Of a stretch of 64,000 nt of DNA, positions 33,591 through 40,964 are shown piece after piece. The translations under genes were made by a program, and so were the position numbers. Within the stretch, counting starts at the first letter, position 1. Every line of letters starts with the position of its first letter. The notes beneath the pieces were generated by a model. It was not told where the DNA came from and did no database searches. It was given only the letters and a program-made list of their open reading frames with translations. The DNA comes from Planctomycetota bacterium (GTDB taxonomy: Bacteria > Planctomycetota > SZUA-567 > H5-PLA8): the NCBI GenBank assembly GCA_038227875.1, contig JBBRPR010000037.1, positions 1-64,000 of the forward strand, given 5' to 3'.

Positions 33591-33670
33591 AGAAGACGGG
33601 AATCGGGATTCGGGATTCAGGATTCGCCGCTGTCCCCGATTCCCGAATCCCGATTCCCGAATCCCGTTCT
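33591..33670. repeat. inverted pair of (GGGATTC)n heptamer arrays
   Basis: CGGGAATCGGGATTCGGGATTCAGGATTCG ... CGATTCCCGAATCCCGATTCCCGAATCCCG. Confidence 0.9.
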
Positions 33671-35718
33671 TAGTGCTTATCCGGCTGCAGCTGCATATAC
33701 CGGTAGTACACCTCCAGGCACAGCGCGCCGATGGCCGTTGAGCCGACGCGGCCCCAGCATTCGGAGTAGGTGCCCATCGGGTCCCAGCTGCCGTCTTCGT
33801 CGCCGCCTTTGCGCTGGTTGGGGACCAGCGCGGCTTTCAGGCCTTCGTTCCACTGCTTCCAGATATCCCCGCCCTGTTGGAAGACACAGAGCGTGCCGTA
33901 GTACCAGTAGTACATGTCCAAGGTGTTCTTGTGCTGCTTGTCGCCGTCGTCCTGCCACTTCGGCACGCCGCCGTCTTTGATGAACAGCTCGACGCTGGAC
34001 TGCAGATCTTCCTTCTTCCAACCCATGAACTGGCGGCAGAGATTCCCGATGGCGCAGCGGCGGTGATTGGTGCCGGCGCCCTTCTGGTATTCAAAACGCG
34101 ACGCCGGACCGTAGCCGGAATCGGGCGCGGCGTTCTTCTGTTCCATCTGGTCGATGAACTTGATCGCGCCTTCGAAAGCGCTGGCGGGAACGTGGATGCC
34201 GGCGACCTTCGCGGACTTCAGCGCCATCACGAACCAACCGGTGACGGAAATATCGGCGGCCATCTTCGGCTGGTAACGCCACGCGCCGGTTTCCGATCCC
34301 GCGCCTTCGGCGTGGGATTCGACGCAGTAGGTCACGGCCCGCGTCGCGGCGGCGCGGGTTTCTGGAATGTTGCCCATGCCCGCGGCTTCGGAGAGTGCCA
34401 TCGTGGCCATCGCGCAGCTGTAGCCCAGGCCCAATTCGGAGCTGTCGGTGCGGTCGAAGACGCAGCCCTTGGCGTCCTGCATGCTCTTGAGCCACGCCAC
34501 GGCGCGCTTGACGTTGTCTTTGTACTGGCCGACTTTTTCCGTGTGGCCCGCGCCGAGAAACGCCAGCAGGGAGAGCGCAGTCACGGCGGTATCGCATTTC
34601 ACTTCGCGCCAGTACGTGGCCTTGCCGCCGTCGTACTTGCGGGAATCCCAGTGGCCGTCGGCTTCCTGATGATACGCCAGCCACTGCAGAGCCTTGTCGA
34701 CGGCGTTCTCGGTCATCTTCGAACCGCCGTGCCGCTTGACCATCAAGCGGCGTCCGCCGCCGTTGCGCTGGCCGAAGCTGCCGCGGCCGGCGCCCGTGCC
34801 GACGCCGACGCCGGTGCCGTCTCCCCCGCCCCAGCCGCCGCCGGTGCCTTTGCTGGCGACACCGCCGACGCCGATCAGGTCTTCCATCCCCATGCCGCCC
34901 ATGCCGCCACCGCCTTCGGGTTCATCGTTGCCTTCCACCGAGTGGAACATCCTGGCGTCGGGATTGCCAAAGGCGCTCTGGGTGTCCGGTCGGTCCGGGT
35001 TGATGGTTTCGAAGTGGTCGCCGAGTTCCGCCTTGGCCAGCAGGTCCGGCGGGACGACGATATCGGATGCTTCCTTAGATGTAGGATCGGTGGCGGGAGT
35101 GTCGTGCTTGGACTGCAGCGCCTCGAGCGCCGATTCGGGCTTTTCCTTCTGCTGTTCCTGTTCGACCTGCGGACGCGCGGCCAGTTCGGTCATCATGATC
35201 ACGGCATCGTCGTTCTTGGGAAGATCGATCGACATCGTCACCAGTCCGGCCAGTACAATGATGAGAATATGGAGCGCGCAGGAGACGGCCCACCACGGCG
35301 CGGCGCCCAGCTTGGCGAACAGGCCGCCGCTGGCGCCGACTTCGACGGGTTCTTCCTGGCCGGTTTCGGCGGCGAGTTCCGCGGCCAGCGCGTCGGGATC
35401 GGTTTCGTGCTCGATGGCTTTCATGCGCCGCGAATCCTGGCTGGTCACGGCCCGCGGACGATCGGGAGTCTGTCGCATTTCGGTTAACCTCTTGTTCGCG
35501 TTCAGATCAAATCCGTCGGAGATCCGCCGCTGACCCAATGTGTTTCCCAGCAGCGCCAGCACCTGGCGACGCCGCTCAAATTCTTCCAGGCAACCGGCGC
35601 AGACGGCAATGTGCGAATCCAGCGACGCGGACAGGTCCGGCGAAGCCTCGCCGTCCAGGACCGAGCGGATGGAAGCAATCGCCTCTTCGCAGTTGATGAA
35701 TGTTGTCGAATCGCTCAT
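33670..35718 (-). CDS. zf-HC2 anti-sigma domain + TM + prenyltransferase/squalene-oxidase repeat barrel
   Basis: LDGE...HIAVCAGC; TM WAVSCALHILII; QEADGHW, TALSLLAFLGAG, YYWYYGT, DGSWDP. Confidence 0.85.
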   Translation of the reverse strand: MSDSTTFINCEEAIASIRSVLDGEASPDLSASLDSHIAVCAGCLEEFERRRQVLALLGNTLGQRRISDGFDLNANKRLTEMRQTPDRPRAVTSQDSRRMKAIEHETDPDALAAELAAETGQEEPVEVGASGGLFAKLGAAPWWAVSCALHILIIVLAGLVTMSIDLPKNDDAVIMMTELAARPQVEQEQQKEKPESALEALQSKHDTPATDPTSKEASDIVVPPDLLAKAELGDHFETINPDRPDTQSAFGNPDARMFHSVEGNDEPEGGGGMGGMGMEDLIGVGGVASKGTGGGWGGGDGTGVGVGTGAGRGSFGQRNGGGRRLMVKRHGGSKMTENAVDKALQWLAYHQEADGHWDSRKYDGGKATYWREVKCDTAVTALSLLAFLGAGHTEKVGQYKDNVKRAVAWLKSMQDAKGCVFDRTDSSELGLGYSCAMATMALSEAAGMGNIPETRAAATRAVTYCVESHAEGAGSETGAWRYQPKMAADISVTGWFVMALKSAKVAGIHVPASAFEGAIKFIDQMEQKNAAPDSGYGPASRFEYQKGAGTNHRRCAIGNLCRQFMGWKKEDLQSSVELFIKDGGVPKWQDDGDKQHKNTLDMYYWYYGTLCVFQQGGDIWKQWNEGLKAALVPNQRKGGDEDGSWDPMGTYSECWGRVGSTAIGALCLEVYYRYMQLQPDKH

Positions 35719-35745
35719 GACCTGTGTGTTCCTGAATTCATCCGC

Positions 35746-36324
35746 TCAACTTTTCAGCAGCGAGGCCAATTTCTGTGCGAGCATTCCGTCGGCGCGCGTC
35801 AGTCGGCTGCGCACAGTTCCGGACGGGATGCCGAGCTTCGCGGCGATCTGGTCGGTCGACATTTTTTCCCAGTACCGCAGGATCACGACGTCGCGGTACG
35901 GTTCGGGCAAGGCATCGACGGCGCGCAGCACGGCCGCGTCATCGGGGCCGGGAATGCTGGGCGCGTGCGGAGCCCGGCGGTCTTCGGGCGCTTCGATCGC
36001 CTGCAATTTTTCCGTCGAGAGACGTTCCTCTTTCGCGCGACGGCTGCCGCGGCGCCAGGCCAGCGCGGTGCAGCGGTTGATTTCGCGCAGCCACACTCCG
36101 AGTTTTGCCGTGTCGCGAAGCCGGCCGATGTCGAGGAACGCCTTGCAGAGCGTTTCCTGCGCGATGTCTTCGGCGTCCTGCTGTTTATCGACGATGGTCA
36201 GAGCCTGGTGGACGAGGCCGGCGCGGAAGCGTTCGAGCAGAATCCAGAAATGGTCGACCGCCGCGGCGTCGGGATTCGCGCGGAGACCTTCCAGAGCTTC
36301 AATCGCCATGTCCGTCGTGTGCAT
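35746..36324 (-). CDS. ECF RNA polymerase sigma factor
   Basis: DAEDIAQET, WLREI, LPEPYRDVVILRY, GTVRSRLTRA. Confidence 0.93.
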   Translation of the reverse strand: MHTTDMAIEALEGLRANPDAAAVDHFWILLERFRAGLVHQALTIVDKQQDAEDIAQETLCKAFLDIGRLRDTAKLGVWLREINRCTALAWRRGSRRAKEERLSTEKLQAIEAPEDRRAPHAPSIPGPDDAAVLRAVDALPEPYRDVVILRYWEKMSTDQIAAKLGIPSGTVRSRLTRADGMLAQKLASLLKS

Positions 36325-36410
36325 TAAAACTCCCGAAAACACCACGCTCCATAAGTAAGGCTGCTTGCCGCGTCCGTTTCGCTCCCGAAAAATTGAAAAT
36401 AGTTTTGGGA

Positions 36411-36583: not shown

Positions 36584-37102
36584 CTATGTGGGCATCGGCC
36601 GGTAGTCACTGCCACGCTCAATGCGCCGGAAGTCGCCGTTCTCAAGAAACGTAATCAGGCAATTCGCGGCGTGCTGGGCGATTTGCGGAACCTGCTTGCC
36701 GCCATACGGCCAGATCGAAGTCAGGCGCGGCGTCATCTTGCCGATCAGGTTCATCGTCGCCATCTTGTTGGGATCGGCGACGAGATAATCGCCCACTCCA
36801 CTTTCTCCGGCATGCAGACTTCGGCGCAGAAACAGAATTGGAATATCTTTGACCACTGGATCGAGCAGCGGCATCAGGTCCTTGGCGCCGAACGTATTGA
36901 TGACCACGATGGCTGGCTGGGTTTGCGCGGTCTGAGTCGACGCGAGGACGACGGCCAATTCTTTGAGATTGGATGCAAACGGCAGCGGCGCGATCTTGCT
37001 CTTGAACAGCAGTCCGCGGATGGTCGTGCAGATTCGTGTCTGCTCGTTCCCGGCAGCGGCTTCCGCTTCAAAGAAAACCGGTATGCGGCGCATAGGGCTC
37101 AA
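36584..37102 (-). CDS. hypothetical protein, possibly a degenerate receiver-like domain
   Basis: PAIVVINTFG...DIPILFL pattern; abuts the upstream stop (start at 37102 or 37093). Confidence 0.6.
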   Translation of the reverse strand: MSPMRRIPVFFEAEAAAGNEQTRICTTIRGLLFKSKIAPLPFASNLKELAVVLASTQTAQTQPAIVVINTFGAKDLMPLLDPVVKDIPILFLRRSLHAGESGVGDYLVADPNKMATMNLIGKMTPRLTSIWPYGGKQVPQIAQHAANCLITFLENGDFRRIERGSDYRPMPT

Positions 37103-38736
37103 CTGCTTGACGTGGCTTCACCCGTCAAACCCGTGCCGAGCAGGGACATCTTGACGTACGCGGCAGCGAAGTCTTTGAAGAACTCGTCCTGATTGTTGGC
37201 GTAGCGCAGGATGATCTCCCGGCACTCGGGATCCTTGATCATGTCCTTGTCGGTCGAGAGCATGTTCTTGGTGTTACCCGAGATCAGCGCTTTGTAGTAG
37301 CTGTTGTTGAACTTGTACCAGTCGTCGGTGAACGGAATACCTTTCAGCCGTCCGATGGTGTGAGCGCCGGAGAGCGCGACCATCTCCTGGACAGTGAGAC
37401 CGGTGTCGGCAAAGCGATCCTTCAACTGCGTCGTCGTCAGGTTTTCCAGATCGAGCACATTGGCGGGCGTGTACTTATCGGAATCCACGCGGCCCAGCGG
37501 CACGTGGATTTCCGGCCCGCCGCACTTCTCAACCGCCACCGCACCGCCGAGGGCGATCAAGTCGGCCCAGGAAACTTCCGGGAAACGTTCCTTCACCGGC
37601 TTGAGCAGATTGATTGGGATTTCCATGCCGCGATTTTCGTAGCGCGACAGTTGTTCCGGCAGACGCAGCGAACCGTCGGCGCCACCGGTTTTCATGCGCG
37701 CGCTGTACTTGCCCGCGTCGTGAAACGCGGCGCGCAGAAAGAGCGGTGCCTTCTGTTGCGTGACGACGTCGCAGAGCGCCCGGTTGACGCGGCGGCGCAG
37801 GTCGCCTTCGCGGTCGATGATCTGCGTCTGGTCGTAGAGGCGCACGACCTCATGCAAATGATACGATCCGCTTTTGCCTTTCAGCAGAGCGTCGTGGGTG
37901 CGGCCCAGCTGGATCCGGTTTTTGAGGTGAAAATACACGGCGTCGGAAATCAGCAGCGAGGCCTGATACGTCTTCGTTGCCGATTCGATGCGGCTGGCCA
38001 TGTTGACGTTGTCGCCGATCACGGTCATCTGGCGGCGGTTGGGATGGCCCAGTTCGCCGAGGATCGCTTCGCCAAAATGGATGCCGACGCCAATGCGGAA
38101 TTCGACGTCGAAATTGCGCTTCAGATAAACGTTGAGCGACTTGAGTTCGTCGACCATTTCCAGACCGGCGTTGACGGCGTTGAAGCAATTGATCTGCGGA
38201 TCGGAGGTGTTGATGCCGAAGAGCGCCATCATGCCGTCGCCCATGTACTTGTCGATGTAGCCTTCGTTGCGCAGCACCGCTTCGCCCATCTGGTAGAAAT
38301 AGCGGTTGAGAATATGGATCGTGTCGTACGACAGGTGGCGTTCGGAAAAGACGGTGAAGTCGCGGATGTCCGTGAACATGATCGCCAGGCGCGTTTCACG
38401 CCCGGTCGTGACCTGCGGGCAATGGATCACCAGATCCGCGTCGCCATCGTCGAGCACCAGGCGGCGGACCGAGACCGGTCCGGTCACGCGGGTCTGGCAG
38501 GCGAGGCGGATGTTCTTCTCGAAACCTTTGATGTCGGCGAGTTTTTGTTCAGCGGCATTGCGTGGCGTGCAATTGTCGAGGTTATCGAGCACCATCACGC
38601 GGCAGGTGGAACAACGCGCCGTCGCACCACACACATGCATGTGCGGTACTTTGTTCTTCAACGCGATATCGAGCAGGGACAGGCTCTGGTCCGTCTCTTC
38701 AAACGTCCCGTCCTGATGAAAATCAATCAACGCCAT
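37099..38736 (-). CDS. [2Fe-2S] ferredoxin - class III adenylate cyclase - class I heme peroxidase fusion
   Basis: CGATARCSTC...RLACQ; FTDIRDFT, DKYMGDG, TVIGDNVNMASR; LRAAFHDAG, SWADLI, VALSGAHTIG, LSTD. Confidence 0.92.
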   Translation of the reverse strand: MALIDFHQDGTFEETDQSLSLLDIALKNKVPHMHVCGATARCSTCRVMVLDNLDNCTPRNAAEQKLADIKGFEKNIRLACQTRVTGPVSVRRLVLDDGDADLVIHCPQVTTGRETRLAIMFTDIRDFTVFSERHLSYDTIHILNRYFYQMGEAVLRNEGYIDKYMGDGMMALFGINTSDPQINCFNAVNAGLEMVDELKSLNVYLKRNFDVEFRIGVGIHFGEAILGELGHPNRRQMTVIGDNVNMASRIESATKTYQASLLISDAVYFHLKNRIQLGRTHDALLKGKSGSYHLHEVVRLYDQTQIIDREGDLRRRVNRALCDVVTQQKAPLFLRAAFHDAGKYSARMKTGGADGSLRLPEQLSRYENRGMEIPINLLKPVKERFPEVSWADLIALGGAVAVEKCGGPEIHVPLGRVDSDKYTPANVLDLENLTTTQLKDRFADTGLTVQEMVALSGAHTIGRLKGIPFTDDWYKFNNSYYKALISGNTKNMLSTDKDMIKDPECREIILRYANNQDEFFKDFAAAYVKMSLLGTGLTGEATSSS

Positions 38737-38894
38737 GCGGCGGATGTTAACAGAATTTCCATGCACGTCGAAGATGATTTCTTGACTTCTCACTGCCCTG
38801 TCGGCATCGTTTTACTCTATCGTCCCCTTCCCCGGTTTTGCGCCGTACTCCGCAACGCGGAAGGCAACCTCACGCTCAGGAGTTTGAACAGTCC

Positions 38895-39503
38895 ATGGCA
38901 TTGGTCACCGTCACCAGCAGCGGCGCGGAGCCGCGATCCTACGAAATCAACAAACCCCGCATCGTCTTCGGACGCGATTCGAACAATTCCGACGTCCATC
39001 TCGACAATCTGGCCATCTCCAAGAACCACTGCGAAATCGTCAAAGACGACCAGGGCTACCTGCTGCGCGATCTGAAAAGCTCCAACAAGACCTATGTGAA
39101 CGGGAAGGAAATCCAGGAGCACCGTCTCTCCAACGGCGACGAGATCGTCGTCGGAAATTTCAAGATGACGTTCTCCGGCGCCGTCGCCGTTGAGTCGCGC
39201 CCCAAGCCCGTGGCTGAGGATTCTTTTGAACCGACGCTCCAGCTTCCGCCGGAAATGATCCGCAAGAAGATGGAGGAAATGCAGCGCGAGAAGGAGCAGG
39301 GCGTCTCCGCCACCCGCGCCGCCGCCGCGACCACCGCCAAGCGCCCGACCGCGTCGAGCTCCCAGGACAATCACCCCGCGACCAGCCAGAACGCGCAGTC
39401 CGGATCGGGATCCGGCAATTCCAACATGGCCGTGATCATCGTCGTCGGCGCGATCATCGCCGTGATTGTGGTCAACGTGATCATCGCGCTGAGGCAGCAC
39501 TAA
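38895..39503 (+). CDS. FHA-domain protein with C-terminal TM anchor
   Basis: FGRD, ISKNHC, DLKSSNKTYVNG, LSNGDEI. Confidence 0.88.
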   Translation: MALVTVTSSGAEPRSYEINKPRIVFGRDSNNSDVHLDNLAISKNHCEIVKDDQGYLLRDLKSSNKTYVNGKEIQEHRLSNGDEIVVGNFKMTFSGAVAVESRPKPVAEDSFEPTLQLPPEMIRKKMEEMQREKEQGVSATRAAAATTAKRPTASSSQDNHPATSQNAQSGSGSGNSNMAVIIVVGAIIAVIVVNVIIALRQH

Positions 39504-39552: not shown

Positions 39553-39791
39553 ATAAGGGTGCTCGGCGCTTTAACCTCATGCCGGTGCGAGTGGAGTTCG
39601 ATTTCAAATATGAGAAAGCGAACCCCGCTCGCAGATCATTATTCTGCATACAGAATTTACCATTGACCAATTTCTAAAGCCCGAATCCACGATCCAATCC
39701 GTTCGCGACGTTTGCGTTTTTCATATTTTCCCGATACATCGCCGGTGTATGCAGTTAAACTAAATGTGGCCTATTGATCAGGTTGGCAACC

Positions 39792-40964
39792 ATGCAACTG
39801 TACTACTGCGCAAAATGTGGATCGCGTCTTCCGAACGATGAGGCGGCGCGCGTCCAGCCGGAGGAAGAACCCGCCAACATTCTTTGCGTGGGTTGCGCGC
39901 CGCAAGTGCCGGCAGCGGACTTCAGTCACGCCGCGTCTGGTCCGAAGTTAGCCACGCACACGCCGGCCATGCCCGCGCGCGCAATTTCCGCAGCCAAAAC
40001 CCGCACGACTGAATTGCGCACGCGACCGAGCACCAATACCAATGTCTCGGCCAGCAACATCAGCCGCGCCACGCGTGGCGCTCCCGTTGCGCCCGGCAAA
40101 AGCGGCCCCAATTCAGGCCAGAAAAACAACACCATGATCTACGCCGGCGTGGGCGTCGGAGCGCTGGCGATTCTGTTCGGTCTGTATCTGATTGCCGGTT
40201 CAAGCGCGAAGCCCGAGGCACACGTCGCACGTACCGACGAGACCAAGCCTGATCCTTCGAAATCAACGACTTCGCCGGCGCCGAAAAGCGACAAGCCCAT
40301 CGAAACGAAAAGTACCACCAACACGCCCACAACTGCTCCTGAAGGCACGCAGTCTCCAAAGCCCATCGCCGATCCCGTCTTCTCGCCGAAAGAAGATTAC
40401 GAACGCCGCGTGAAAGCAGGCTTGATCAAGACCAACGAACCCGCGACGCCAGCAACTCCAGCGACGCCCGCCACGCCGGACGCGCCCAAAGCGACGGACG
40501 CACCGGCCACCGGTCCGCTGCCGGGGTATTCCGCCGATGACCCGAGCTGGAAGCTGATTTTCAACGGCAAGGACACCACGGGCTGGCACGATCTCAAGGG
40601 CCACTTCACGGTACAAGACGGGTGCCTGATCCACGTTGCTGGCACGGGAAACGCTTTTATCTCCACCGATGTCAATTACGGCGATTTCGATCTGAGTTTC
40701 AAAATCATGCTCATGGCAGGCGGTCGGCACGCGGAAGTGAAAGTCCGCGAGAGCAGCAGTTCGTTTTATATTGATGGCGGAGACTTCAATGTCTGGCGCG
40801 ACGTGCGCGTCTCCGCTCACGGCGGGCAGGTGCGCGCTTCCGTCAATGGCGAGCCACTCGCCTCCGCCGAAGGAGATGGCGCGGCGCTGACCGGCCCGAT
40901 TCAATTTTACTGTTCCAATGTGATTCAATACAAGATCAAGGACCTGGCCATCCGCACGAAGTAA
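39792..40964 (+). CDS. zinc ribbon + TM + Pro/Thr linker + DUF1080-like domain
   Basis: YYCAKCG...LCVGC; WKLIFNGKDTTGW, YGDFDL, GPIQF. Confidence 0.8.
   Translation: MQLYYCAKCGSRLPNDEAARVQPEEEPANILCVGCAPQVPAADFSHAASGPKLATHTPAMPARAISAAKTRTTELRTRPSTNTNVSASNISRATRGAPVAPGKSGPNSGQKNNTMIYAGVGVGALAILFGLYLIAGSSAKPEAHVARTDETKPDPSKSTTSPAPKSDKPIETKSTTNTPTTAPEGTQSPKPIADPVFSPKEDYERRVKAGLIKTNEPATPATPATPATPDAPKATDAPATGPLPGYSADDPSWKLIFNGKDTTGWHDLKGHFTVQDGCLIHVAGTGNAFISTDVNYGDFDLSFKIMLMAGGRHAEVKVRESSSSFYIDGGDFNVWRDVRVSAHGGQVRASVNGEPLASAEGDGAALTGPIQFYCSNVIQYKIKDLAIRTK

Follow-up and report, generated by a model that had tools for sequence, protein, structure and literature searches.

Ferredoxin domains joined to class III nucleotide cyclases are not without precedent. 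In the part of PMC4821796 available to us, class IIIb cyclases such as Q132R4 of Rhodopseudomonas palustris combine a ferredoxin directly N-terminal of the cyclase with a heme module, and the authors predicted that these ferredoxin-linked enzymes, which possess a 6TM cytochrome-b-like heme anchor, are redox-linked. The heme of the Q132R4 type resides in this N-terminal membrane anchor, whereas the protein described here, encoded in a 64,000-nucleotide stretch of planctomycete DNA (the window), is soluble, with a C-terminal peroxidase as its predicted heme domain. A second precedent is lic12506 of Leptospira interrogans, which appears as “FeS, AC/GC, Heme peroxidase” in the accessible text of PMC5100919. 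By that published domain listing, as opposed to an alignment of the LIC12506 sequence, this protein of the Spirochaetota matches the window protein of the Planctomycetota in its three domains and their order, and the three-domain architecture is already in print. In the same source, a lic12506::Tn mutant was fitter in hamster blood, kidney, and liver by Tn-Seq. Beyond PMC5100919, no mention of lic12506 was found in the literature searched, and no biochemical study of a Fer2–cyclase–peroxidase protein was found in a search that excluded ~1.7 million PMC articles and subscription-only papers. The fusion goes unmentioned in the available portions of PMC10294975, which deals with Leptospira oxidant defenses, and of PMC4420034, which deals with how heme peroxidases evolved.

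The individual domains also have described counterparts. The nearest cyclase folds are those of CyaC (Spirulina platensis) and CyaB (Pseudomonas aeruginosa), which share the catalytic set and Lys/Thr pair of the window protein but carry other regulatory domains, with neither a ferredoxin nor a peroxidase. Among peroxidases, cytosolic ascorbate peroxidase (APX; soybean 1oaf, pea 1apx) is the closest solved match, at 36% identity and with identical heme ligands. Cytosolic APX carries the Arg172 loop, Trp41, and Trp179, whereas the window domain lacks the loop and has Phe at both Trp positions. The other relevant group is APX-R (Arabidopsis APX6, Chlamydomonas APX2), which has Phe41, no Arg172, and the same catalytic Arg/His/His/Asp as the window domain. 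In the sections of PMC8069737 at hand, Arg172 is described as the ascorbate-binding residue of APX, and replacement of Trp41 by Phe plus loss of Arg172 as the hallmark of APX-R. The accessible parts of two further reports state that Arabidopsis APX-R reduces H2O2 but does not use ascorbate as the reductant (PMC7825652), and that the in vivo electron donor of plastid APX-R is still unknown (PMC11496181). In green eukaryotes, APX-R stands alone as a plastid protein, whereas the window peroxidase is a fused bacterial domain.

Gene limits, domain layout, and distribution

The open reading frame (ORF) list places a 564-aa frame on the minus strand at 37099..38793, starting at GTG, while translation from the ATG at 38736 yields 545 aa. 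The latter start, and hence gene limits of 37099–38736 including the stop codon, is taken as correct because homolog lengths and N-termini agree: the closest relative (P0002; 94% identical across 100% of the query) is likewise 545 aa long, and the consensus N-terminus of the fusion family is MxxIxF. The features of the gene are as follows, with residues in 545-aa numbering.

37099..38736, minus strand: entire coding region, 545 aa and a TGA stop, reading Fer2, then class III cyclase, then heme peroxidase (ORF list, translation, Pfam, AF2)
38452..38736, minus strand: N-terminal predicted [2Fe-2S] ferredoxin domain, residues 1–95, with C36/C42/C45/C80 (Pfam, fdx_isc, Cys conservation)
38389..38463, minus strand: Fer2-to-cyclase connector, residues 92–116, RRLVLDDGDADL..., helix at 97–105 (conservation, AF2 model)
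37837..38397, minus strand: predicted class III nucleotide cyclase catalytic domain, residues 114–300 (Pfam, conservation, Cya2 alignment, Foldseek)
37762..37836, minus strand: variable cyclase-to-peroxidase linker, residues 301–325 (low conservation, pLDDT dip, bridging contig)
37129..37761, minus strand: C-terminal predicted class I-type heme peroxidase domain, residues 326–536 (Pfam, PDB APX match, Foldseek, loop, tree)

As the initial annotation had read it, this is one uninterrupted frame, free of internal stops, with three domains, each of which exceeds its Pfam threshold. In 564-aa numbering, which applies to the Pfam positions only, these are Fer2 (PF00111) at 30–104 (E 9.6e-9, 35.5 bits against a cut-off of 21), Guanylate_cyc (PF00211) at 133–308 (E 4.5e-22, 79 bits against 21.9), and peroxidase (PF00141) at 342–534 (E 5.6e-41, 141.3 bits against 27). 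An AlphaFold2 model built from 117 aligned sequences has a mean pLDDT of 92.5 and a pTM of 0.78; for this monomer, such a pTM denotes a defined domain arrangement and is silent on which domains touch. The gene is present once in a 9.3-Mb genome, a metagenome-assembled draft of 176 contigs that is 88% complete. Taken from its sequence, the product is a cytoplasmic, 545-aa predicted signaling enzyme of a planctomycete and a member of a conserved bacterial family.

The fusion is genuine and conserved among bacteria, is not rare, and has already been annotated in many of them. Fer2, Guanylate_cyc, and peroxidase recur together in 117 of the 120 top-scoring database clusters, at 42–94% identity and lengths of 523–586 aa; with matches of E 1e-9 to 1e-41, the arrangement is beyond chance. 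With clusters built at 90% identity, the family comprises well over 100 of them, so the earlier statement that a few other bacteria have similar architectures was sound but understated. Sampled genomes with a full-length copy number 3 of 401 in Planctomycetota and 25 of 301 in Spirochaetota; the fusion is common in Leptospira-like genomes and scattered over Planctomycetota, Myxococcota, and others. For instance, the Leptospira-type members P0063 and P0114 are 45–50% identical to the window protein over 97–98% of its length.

Ferredoxin, cyclase, and peroxidase domains

The residue-level statements made earlier for all three domains were checked in their motifs, in APX and Cya2 alignments, and in conservation across 118 aligned members, and every one of them agreed. 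The N-terminal domain had been described as a [2Fe-2S] domain with C-x5-C-x2-C...C, and it has both the Pfam Fer2 match and the four ligands, C36-x5-C42-x2-C45 and C80, the last spacing being C-x34-C. These Cys are kept in 117–118 of 118 members. NCBIfam fdx_isc matches the domain weakly, and its top solved relatives are the ISC ferredoxin of E. coli (1i7h, E 2.3e-9), adrenodoxin homologs, and putidaredoxin. By sequence, it is an adrenodoxin/ISC-type [2Fe-2S] ferredoxin with a predicted cluster.

The cyclase domain displays the motifs FTDIRDF (D123), KYMGDG (K163, D167), and MTVIGDNVNMASRIE (T238, N245-x3-R249), which supply both metal Asp, the Lys/Thr pair, and the NxxxR motif reported at the outset. 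Assigned roles are metal binding for D123 and D167, substrate recognition for K163 and T238, the transition state for N245 and R249, and phosphate for K286. D123 and D167 are conserved in 118/118 members, K163 in 115/118, N245 in 116/118, and R249 in 117/118, while position 238 is Thr in 108 and Ser in 10. K163 lies opposite the Glu of the guanylate cyclase Cya2 and the Lys of an engineered, adenylate-forming Cya2, and T238 lies opposite a Gly of Cya2. Foldseek matches the middle part of the model to CyaC (1wc*), CyaB (3r5g), and Cya2 (2w01), with TM by target of 0.87–0.91. Because of the K163/T238 alignment to Cya2, and with class IIIb CyaC and CyaB as the nearest folds, the domain is predicted to be of adenylate rather than guanylate type, with the Lys plus Thr/Ser pattern in place of substrate-position Asp that we take to mark class IIIb.

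The peroxidase domain, of class I within the peroxidase-catalase superfamily, contains LRAAFHDAG (R335, F338, H339), SGAHTIG (H459), IPFTDD (F469), and LSTDKD (D496). The distal Arg and His, proximal His, and Asp named initially are thereby located, and all are well conserved (R335 in 116/118, H339 in 117/118, H459 in 118/118, D496 in 117/118). Neither of the two Trp that characterize APX, CcP, and KatG, one distal and one proximal, is present, again as first noted: in the soybean APX alignment, F338 pairs with the distal Trp (lrlaWhsag) and F469 with the proximal one (gPWt). Among the 118 aligned members, position 338 is F in 86, Y in 31, and W in 1, and position 469 is F in 94, M in 10, Y in 7, I in 5, and L in 2.

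The domain had been likened to ascorbate/cytochrome c peroxidase. This stands for overall sequence and fold, since the best PDB sequence match is APX (E about 1e-41) and in Foldseek the C-terminal part aligns with ascorbate peroxidase at a TM by target of 0.87–0.88; the loop and the tree, in contrast, lie nearer the APX-R type. The loop after the proximal His is 11 residues long (HTIGRLKGIPF), compared with 17 in canonical APX rows (HTLGRCHKERSGFEGPW, with HKERSGF) and 8 in APX-R rows, and the “hker” segment is an insertion on the APX side of the HMMER alignment. With Trp41 replaced by Phe and Arg172 lost, the window peroxidase has the APX-R residue pattern. In a careful peroxidase tree of 80 rows and 218 columns, a bacterial clade (98/97 support, 32 rows) and an APX-R-like clade (99/94 support, 12 rows) are neighbors at 85/81, both within a Phe-41 clade supported at 100/99, outside of which falls the canonical APX P0196 (E 2e-118 to 1apx). 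The missing Arg172 loop and the Phe-41 placement rule out ascorbate peroxidase sensu stricto (EC 1.11.1.11), and membership of APX-R proper is likewise rejected, as the bacterial clade is beside rather than inside the APX-R-like clade, a sister rather than a member. By these sequence features, the peroxidase is nearer the ascorbate-independent APX-R type than APX or CcP.

The accompanying view that single-domain class I peroxidases are mainly eukaryotic requires nuance, as stand-alone relatives of 212–265 aa occur in metagenomes. Some of the “short” tree rows may be pieces of three-domain genes cut off on short contigs. One short stand-alone relative is named from a Chloroflexi MAG. A cluster look-up of 10 unnamed peroxidases gave informative names for Closterium and an MMETSP transcript only.

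Two-domain relatives and a proposed mechanism

The Fer2–cyclase pair also exists on its own. Among Planctomycetota genomes with a match, 22 of 25 align over residues of about 1–300 only, as do 27 of 52 among the Spirochaetota, and nine such loci that were read encode Fer2–cyclase proteins of roughly 300 aa. Two- and three-domain forms interleave in a tree of the Fer2–cyclase region, with 4 changes needed and starred branches forcing at least 2. The connector between the two domains contains an invariant D96 and D99, has R92 and L93 conserved at ≥90% (117 sequences), and forms a short helix at residues 97–105 in the AF2 model. An RRLVxDxxD-like motif recurs at this position in 11 of 13 two-domain relatives that were read, the two in which it was not found being the Hyphomicrobiales loci L006 and L008. 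These two fit the Q132R4 type, with Fer2 and cyclase following about 280 N-terminal residues, and are distant in the Fer2–cyclase tree. The connector is a candidate signal-transducing element. The linker on the other side of the cyclase (residues 301–325) is the least conserved stretch of the protein, with a mean identity to the query of 0.19 and pLDDT falling to 65 at 301–310.

Fusions of Fe-S domains to peroxidases recur as well. For example, P0245 is composed of Rubredoxin_C, Fer2_BFD, and peroxidase, and P0206 keeps the ferredoxin Cys and peroxidase residues alongside degenerate cyclase motifs.

Judging from sequence conservation, all three chemistries are under selection across the 118 aligned members, and the fusion probably signals peroxide, or the redox state, by way of cAMP. 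The full reading that we favor, to which we give slightly less than an even chance, is that peroxide oxidizes the cluster via the heme and that the redox state of the cluster sets cAMP output. The cyclase domains of two chains would pair as a head-to-tail homodimer, which is expected to make cAMP because every chain has the full catalytic residue set. The Fer2–cyclase pair would be the core sensor-effector, with the [2Fe-2S] redox state setting cyclase activity through the connector, since the pair occurs without a peroxidase in close relatives and its connector is invariant at key positions. The peroxidase would then be an add-on input module whose heme reacts with H2O2 by means of the distal Arg and His and, because there is no ascorbate site, would draw electrons from the reduced [2Fe-2S] cluster(s) of its own protein. 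Peroxide acting through the heme would oxidize the cluster far faster than it could directly and shift cAMP output in either direction, after which a cellular reductase or ferredoxin partner may re-reduce the cluster and reset the switch. The resulting cAMP might be read by the many cNMP-binding proteins of the organism, whose genome has 12 cNMP_binding matches. An invariant connector on the N side and a variable linker on the C side would fit mechanical coupling on the former and electron coupling on the latter.

Several observations sit less comfortably with this mechanism. The electron relay would require a cluster within electron-transfer distance of a heme, in the same chain or across chains. 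Two-domain relatives function without a peroxidase, which leaves room for the cluster to respond to a signal other than peroxide. With the pseudo-cyclase P0206, at least one lineage keeps ferredoxin and peroxidase without cAMP output, as would suit an enzyme no less than a sensor. The fitter Leptospira mutant, as given in the available part of the Tn-Seq study, is contrary to what simple “peroxide defense” predicts. Also counting against the mechanism, at the loci compared, no conserved neighbor gene hints at a reductase or cAMP receptor. A 172-aa ORF at 36584–37102 (minus strand), which overlaps the stop codon of the fusion, has no Pfam match and is absent from 65 related loci and five fusion-carrying genomes. 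The ECF sigma, anti-sigma, FHA, and DUF1080-like neighbors in the window are not adjacent to the fusion in L001–L003, and the neighbors of seven other loci have nothing in common across phyla. A conserved operon partner is rejected on the basis of these comparisons. A promoter/terminator scan yielded one promoter-like and two terminator-like sites, not above shuffles.

Alternative readings and wider meaning

The cluster might instead be the sole sensor, of redox poise, O2, NO, or iron, and the peroxidase a passenger that scavenges local H2O2, e.g., to protect the cluster. The interleaving of two- and three-domain forms, the greater frequency of the former in matching genomes, and a conserved connector that joins Fer2 and cyclase next to a variable peroxidase linker all speak for it. 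However, a fixed position and catalytic residues kept in 116–118 of 118 members would be unexpected of a passenger, and a peroxidase that has lost its ascorbate site still needs a reductant, of which the fused ferredoxin is the nearest. We consider this reading doubtful, though a serious one.

Cyclases fused to a heme-based sensor are known, and the heme domain here could be a peroxidase fold that senses a gas or other ligand (NO, CO, O2, or a small organic peroxide or phenol) and acts allosterically on the cyclase, with the ferredoxin maintaining the heme oxidation state. Replacement of both radical-carrying Trp of class I peroxidases, which alters classical radical chemistry, would suit such a role. 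Nevertheless, the peroxide-cleavage set of distal Arg/His and proximal His/Asp is as well conserved as noted above, the least-conserved linker is poorly suited to allosteric transmission to the cyclase, and, according to the accessible text of PMC8069737, active class II/III peroxidases and APX-R normally have Phe at these Trp positions. Taken together, an allosteric heme sensor appears improbable.

A role mainly as a self-contained, ferredoxin-dependent detoxifying peroxidase, with the cyclase fold as a dimerizing scaffold and cAMP constitutive or secondary, is quite improbable. P0206 would be an example of such an enzyme, and KatG and the fusion are mutually exclusive among 31 relatives: KatG was not seen in the five fusion genomes (G000, G237, G406, G407, and G408), and none of the eight KatG genomes has the fusion. 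Conservation of the cyclase catalytic residues in 108–118 of 118 members would be unexpected of a scaffold, however, and the KatG pattern is weak, as it contrasts about two genera with four in genomes that are 74–95% complete, one of the eight (G409) being unpublished. Finally, the chimeric join that had been named as a concern, or a decaying gene, for which a fragmented and incomplete draft assembly leaves some room, is refuted by the recurrence of the architecture in 117/120 clusters from many sources and 25 Spirochaetota genomes with full-length copies, by an intact ORF and high-confidence model, and by a contig of a second study (run X2, record 11, 37734–38043, 4 differences) that spans the cyclase/peroxidase junction.

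The window gene itself offers nothing beyond what many annotated homologs do. The new detail lies in the class IIIb pattern, the adrenodoxin/ISC-type ferredoxin, the APX-R-like peroxidase, and the two-domain close relatives. More broadly, the family may represent a heme-peroxidase-based H2O2 receptor with second-messenger output, in which the fused ferredoxin is the physiological donor and its oxidation the signal, and ferredoxin would likewise be the reductant of plastid APX-R; we regard this wider proposal as unlikely. Its plant side follows from the position of the bacterial clade as nearest to plastid APX-R together with the fusion itself, which by Rosetta-stone logic predicts a [2Fe-2S] ferredoxin as the chloroplast APX-R reductant. 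On this proposal, the Phe-41 peroxidases of green eukaryotes would also have relatives among bacteria, which published APX-R phylogenies left out. The fusion thus offers ferredoxin as a concrete candidate donor for plant and algal APX-R, and, as a compact, predicted three-cofactor protein, it is suited to studying cluster-redox gating of a class III cyclase. Bacterial peroxide sensing is known chiefly from thiol- or metal-based transcription factors, e.g., OxyR and PerR. If the proposal is true, the coupling of a heme peroxidase to a nucleotide cyclase would link H2O2 to cAMP by an enzyme-based route unlike these, in a family that occurs in pathogenic Leptospira, where, by the portion of the Tn-Seq report available, its mutation altered fitness within the host.

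Gene, domains and family

The fusion gene is read from the minus strand, where two starts are available.

37099..38793, minus strand: fusion-gene frame in the ORF listing, from an upstream GTG start
ATG at 38736, minus strand: start of the 545-aa coding frame of the fusion protein (P0001), as used by relatives

The ATG is taken as the start shared with relatives, since 545 aa is also the length of the closest cluster (94% identity over 100% coverage) and the family consensus N-terminus reads MxxIxF; the 19 residues added by the GTG have no counterpart among relatives. Fer2, Guanylate_cyc and peroxidase each exceed the curated Pfam threshold, so the three-domain finding of the initial annotation was correct, and every motif it named was located in P0001. 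The NCBIfam matches, to KatG and ISC ferredoxin models, are partial and sub-threshold only. The identity of the three parts is regarded as nearly certain. In an AlphaFold2 model based on 117 aligned family members (mean pLDDT 92.5, pTM 0.78), the only less confident stretches are both linkers between domains, a single loop of the peroxidase and the final four residues. P0001 is single-copy in its own 9.34-Mb, 88%-complete genome, which also carries four further cyclase paralogs.

All three Pfam domains are present in 117 of the 120 best clusters for the whole protein (42–94% identity, 523–586 aa), the others (P0020, P0032 and P0121) being shorter pieces. The initial annotation's mention of similar architectures in a few other bacteria is borne out: cluster sources include Planctomycetota, Phycisphaerales, Tepidisphaeraceae, Myxococcota, Leptospiraceae and Leptospira semungkisensis, under product names such as "peroxidase family protein", "adenylate cyclase" and "guanylate cyclase". 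P0001 joins a family that is annotated in many bacteria and has appeared in print once, the domains of L. interrogans lic12506 being given as "FeS, AC/GC, Heme peroxidase" in PMC5100919. A literature search found no other paper naming lic12506 and no biochemical work on the fusion.

Conservation was assessed in an alignment of 118 of 121 proteins (500–600 aa; P0020, P0113 and P0121 dropped for length). In the ferredoxin, C36, C42 and C45 are each kept in 117/118, the single miss being a gap, and C80 in 118/118. Cyclase positions comprise D123 and D167 (118/118), K163 (115/118), T238 (108 Thr and 10 Ser of 118), N245 (116/118), R249 (117/118) and K286 (110 Lys and 6 Arg of 118), and those of the peroxidase are R335 (116/118), H339 (117/118), H459 (118/118) and D496 (117/118). 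At the level of sequence, the three domains are intact, with all cofactor and catalytic residues constrained family-wide. Against P0001, mean identity reaches 0.56 (Fer2), 0.57 (cyclase) and 0.47 (peroxidase), but only 0.19 in the cyclase–peroxidase linker. The tether of the peroxidase is thus variable, in contrast to a conserved Fer2–cyclase connector in which D96 and D99 are invariant and R92 and L93 nearly so.

The Fer2–cyclase core

Among solved proteins, the ferredoxin is closest to the ISC ferredoxin of E. coli (1i7h, E 2.3e-9), to adrenodoxin homologs and to putidaredoxin, in agreement with its C-x5-C-x2-C spacing. For the cyclase, Cya2, CyaB and CyaC are the top sequence matches, and Foldseek pairs the middle part of P0001 with two adenylate cyclases (CyaC and CyaB) and with Cya2, a guanylate cyclase (TM by target 0.87–0.91). 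K163 aligns with a Glu of Cya2 and with a Lys in the Cya2 form engineered into an adenylate cyclase, and T238 aligns with a Gly of Cya2; from these specificity positions, the P0001 cyclase should use ATP. The Lys/Thr pair is the "class IIIb" mark of the Linder-Schultz classification.

The first two domains also occur without the third. Matches were found in 25 of 401 Planctomycetota genomes (E<=1e-40), full-length in three (G000, G237 and G094) and confined to residues about 1–300 in 22. With the Leptospira protein P0114 as query, 52 of 301 Spirochaetota genomes matched (E<=1e-60), 25 at full length and 27 over residues about 1–300 only. Nine Planctomycetota loci that were read encode Fer2–cyclase proteins of ~300 aa with the same motifs. 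In a quick Fer2–cyclase tree (34 rows), two- and three-domain forms interleave; four domain-state changes are needed, and the starred branches force at least two, so gain or loss of the peroxidase has happened repeatedly on a shared Fer2–cyclase core. The Fer2–cyclase pair with its conserved connector would thus be the core, and the peroxidase an optional module.

Other additions to this pair were seen. Two Hyphomicrobiales relatives (L006 and L008) have ~280 additional N-terminal residues and fit a class IIIb cyclase cluster described in PMC4821796, in which a 6TM heme anchor resembling cytochrome b precedes a ferredoxin. A Spirochaetia MAG protein (L005:3581-4981, plus strand) has an N-terminal Cys-rich DUF2769 domain and no C-terminal peroxidase, and nests among three-domain proteins in the tree. 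Many of the residues 1–300-only matches in Spirochaetota (e.g., genomes G705, G672 and G592) sit in ~450-aa open frames, which may carry a further domain.

The peroxidase domain and its relatives

The best solved sequence matches of the peroxidase are cytosolic ascorbate peroxidase (APX; E about 1e-41) and then cytochrome c peroxidase (CcP; about 1e-26), and Foldseek aligns the C-terminal part with APX of soybean and of pea (TM by target 0.87–0.88, 36% identity). Despite this likeness, Arg172 is absent and the ascorbate site lost, since 11 residues separate the proximal His from the proximal aromatic residue, versus 17 in canonical rows bearing HKERSGF, and "hker" is an insertion in APX relative to P0001 in the HMMER alignment. 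According to PMC8069737, Arg172 is the critical ascorbate ligand, and APX-related proteins (APX-R) are defined by Trp41-to-Phe and a missing Arg172, both of which apply to P0001. Among the 118 members, position 338 (Trp in APX) is F in 86, Y in 31 and W in 1, and position 469 (also Trp in APX) is F in 94, M in 10, Y in 7, I in 5 and L in 2. The initial interpretation as a peroxide or redox sensor making cAMP is reasonable, but its likening of the peroxidase to APX and CcP shifts to APX-R-like, an assignment that this analysis adds. Arabidopsis APX-R (APX6) is reported to bind heme and to reduce H2O2 with guaiacol or pyrogallol, not ascorbate (PMC7825652), and a 2024 review calls the in vivo electron donor of APX-R unknown (PMC11496181).

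Residues 320–545, scanned against 1.84 billion representatives, gave 3442 matches at E<=1e-3, of which 73 reach E<=1e-30. A search of shorter proteins gave 62, including stand-alone peroxidases of 212–265 aa with 42–52% identity, among them one of a Chloroflexi MAG, and proteins of plants or algae annotated "L-ascorbate peroxidase 6". The peroxidase tree suggested initially was built with IQ-TREE from 218 columns and 80 rows of a 176-row FastTree overview (the other 96 left out): 15 three-domain, 15 short metagenomic, 12 APX-R-like, 36 others and, as outgroup, two KatG N-domains from relatives' genomes (L082 excluded, its genome being unpublished). All three-domain and short metagenomic rows, with P0203 and P0216, form a 32-row clade (98/97), neighboured at 85/81 by a 99/94 clade of Chlamydomonas, Volvox, Selaginella "APX6" and Closterium. 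The enclosing 100/99 clade holds 59 rows, all with Phe at position 41, and nests among Trp-41 rows, which include a genuine cytosolic APX (P0196, E 2e-118 against 1apx). Three-domain rows thus fall beside APX-R-like rows and outside canonical APX, in a tree whose rows were chosen by likeness to the query, are mostly unnamed, include four flagged long branches and, among the "short" ones, may include gene fragments from short contigs.

Of the 150 listed peroxidase representatives, 30 were examined with Pfam, which revealed several cyclase–peroxidase fragments. A metagenomic protein of 571 aa (P0245; Rubredoxin_C, Fer2_BFD and peroxidase) resembles a class I-type peroxidase joined to the C-terminal portion of a reductase that depends on NAD(P)H, and looks like a second, independent iron-sulfur/peroxidase fusion. 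Three giants (P0184, P0194 and P0251; 2198–2731 aa), probably eukaryotic, also rank among the best matches; they combine two to four peroxidase domains with DOMON, cytochrome b561, cytochrome b5 or multicopper oxidase.

Genomic context and proposed mechanism

The genes around the fusion are as follows.

33670-35718, minus strand: 682-aa anti-sigma-like protein, with zf-HC2 at the N-terminus and a squalene-hopene-cyclase-like domain at the C-terminus
35746-36345, minus strand: ECF sigma factor (Sigma70_r2 and r4_2)
36584-37102, minus strand: 172-aa ORF whose TTG start overlaps the TGA stop of the fusion gene (TTGA)
38838-39503, plus strand: FHA-domain protein ending in a hydrophobic tail, divergent, 101 bp upstream of the fusion gene
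39774-40964, plus strand: 396-aa protein carrying a DUF1080-type (3-keto-disaccharide hydrolase) domain, after the FHA-domain gene

No conserved neighbour was seen at the related loci and fusion-carrying genomes examined. The sigma/anti-sigma-like pair (33670-36345), downstream on the same strand, is not adjacent to the fusion gene in relatives. Pfam gave nothing for the 172-aa ORF, and neither 65 related loci nor five fusion-carrying genomes yielded a relative of it; it is an orphan gene or no gene at all. The source genome has 12 cNMP_binding matches, and KatG was not found in its 88%-complete sequence. Across 31 relatives, the five fusion genomes (G000, G237, G406, G407 and G408) show no KatG, and the eight KatG genomes (G221, G091, G066, G283, G405, G154, G328 and G409) show no fusion; this pattern, which does not depend on the unpublished G409, is a lead only, since the sample amounts to few genera, with incomplete genomes.

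In the mechanism proposed here, the cyclase would be a homodimer gated by the redox state of the [2Fe-2S] cluster. The heme would reduce H2O2 with electrons from the fused cluster, cluster oxidation would be the signal, and a partner would reset the cluster. The whole chain is put forward tentatively, with somewhat less than an even chance of holding in full. Sensing by the cluster alone, with the peroxidase as a passenger, is unlikely but deserves weight; peroxidase-free relatives and the variable tether stand beside the family-wide retention of peroxidase residues. It is rather improbable that the heme domain is a ligand sensor, a role to be set against the same catalytic residues. One metagenomic protein of 561 aa (P0206) represents a naturally occurring "pseudo-cyclase" form of the fusion: Pfam detects Fer2 and peroxidase and no cyclase domain, the metal Asp, substrate Lys and NxxxR are replaced, and the ferredoxin Cys and peroxidase Arg/His/His/Asp are kept. 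That the fusion is mainly a ferredoxin-dependent peroxidase is nonetheless quite improbable for a family with conserved cyclase residues. A chimeric join, named initially as a refuting possibility, can be practically dismissed along with any other artefact: 36800-39000 is fully matched, with no differences, by contigs from what is probably the source sample, a contig of another study (run X2, record 11, 37734-38043, 4 differences) bridges the cyclase/peroxidase junction, and the architecture recurs among the best clusters.

The value added by this analysis lies in assigning the peroxidase to an APX-R-like type and in recognizing a Fer2–cyclase core with an optional peroxidase. Under the proposed mechanism, the fused ferredoxin also yields a prediction for the peroxidase family, namely that ferredoxin would be the electron donor of APX-R.
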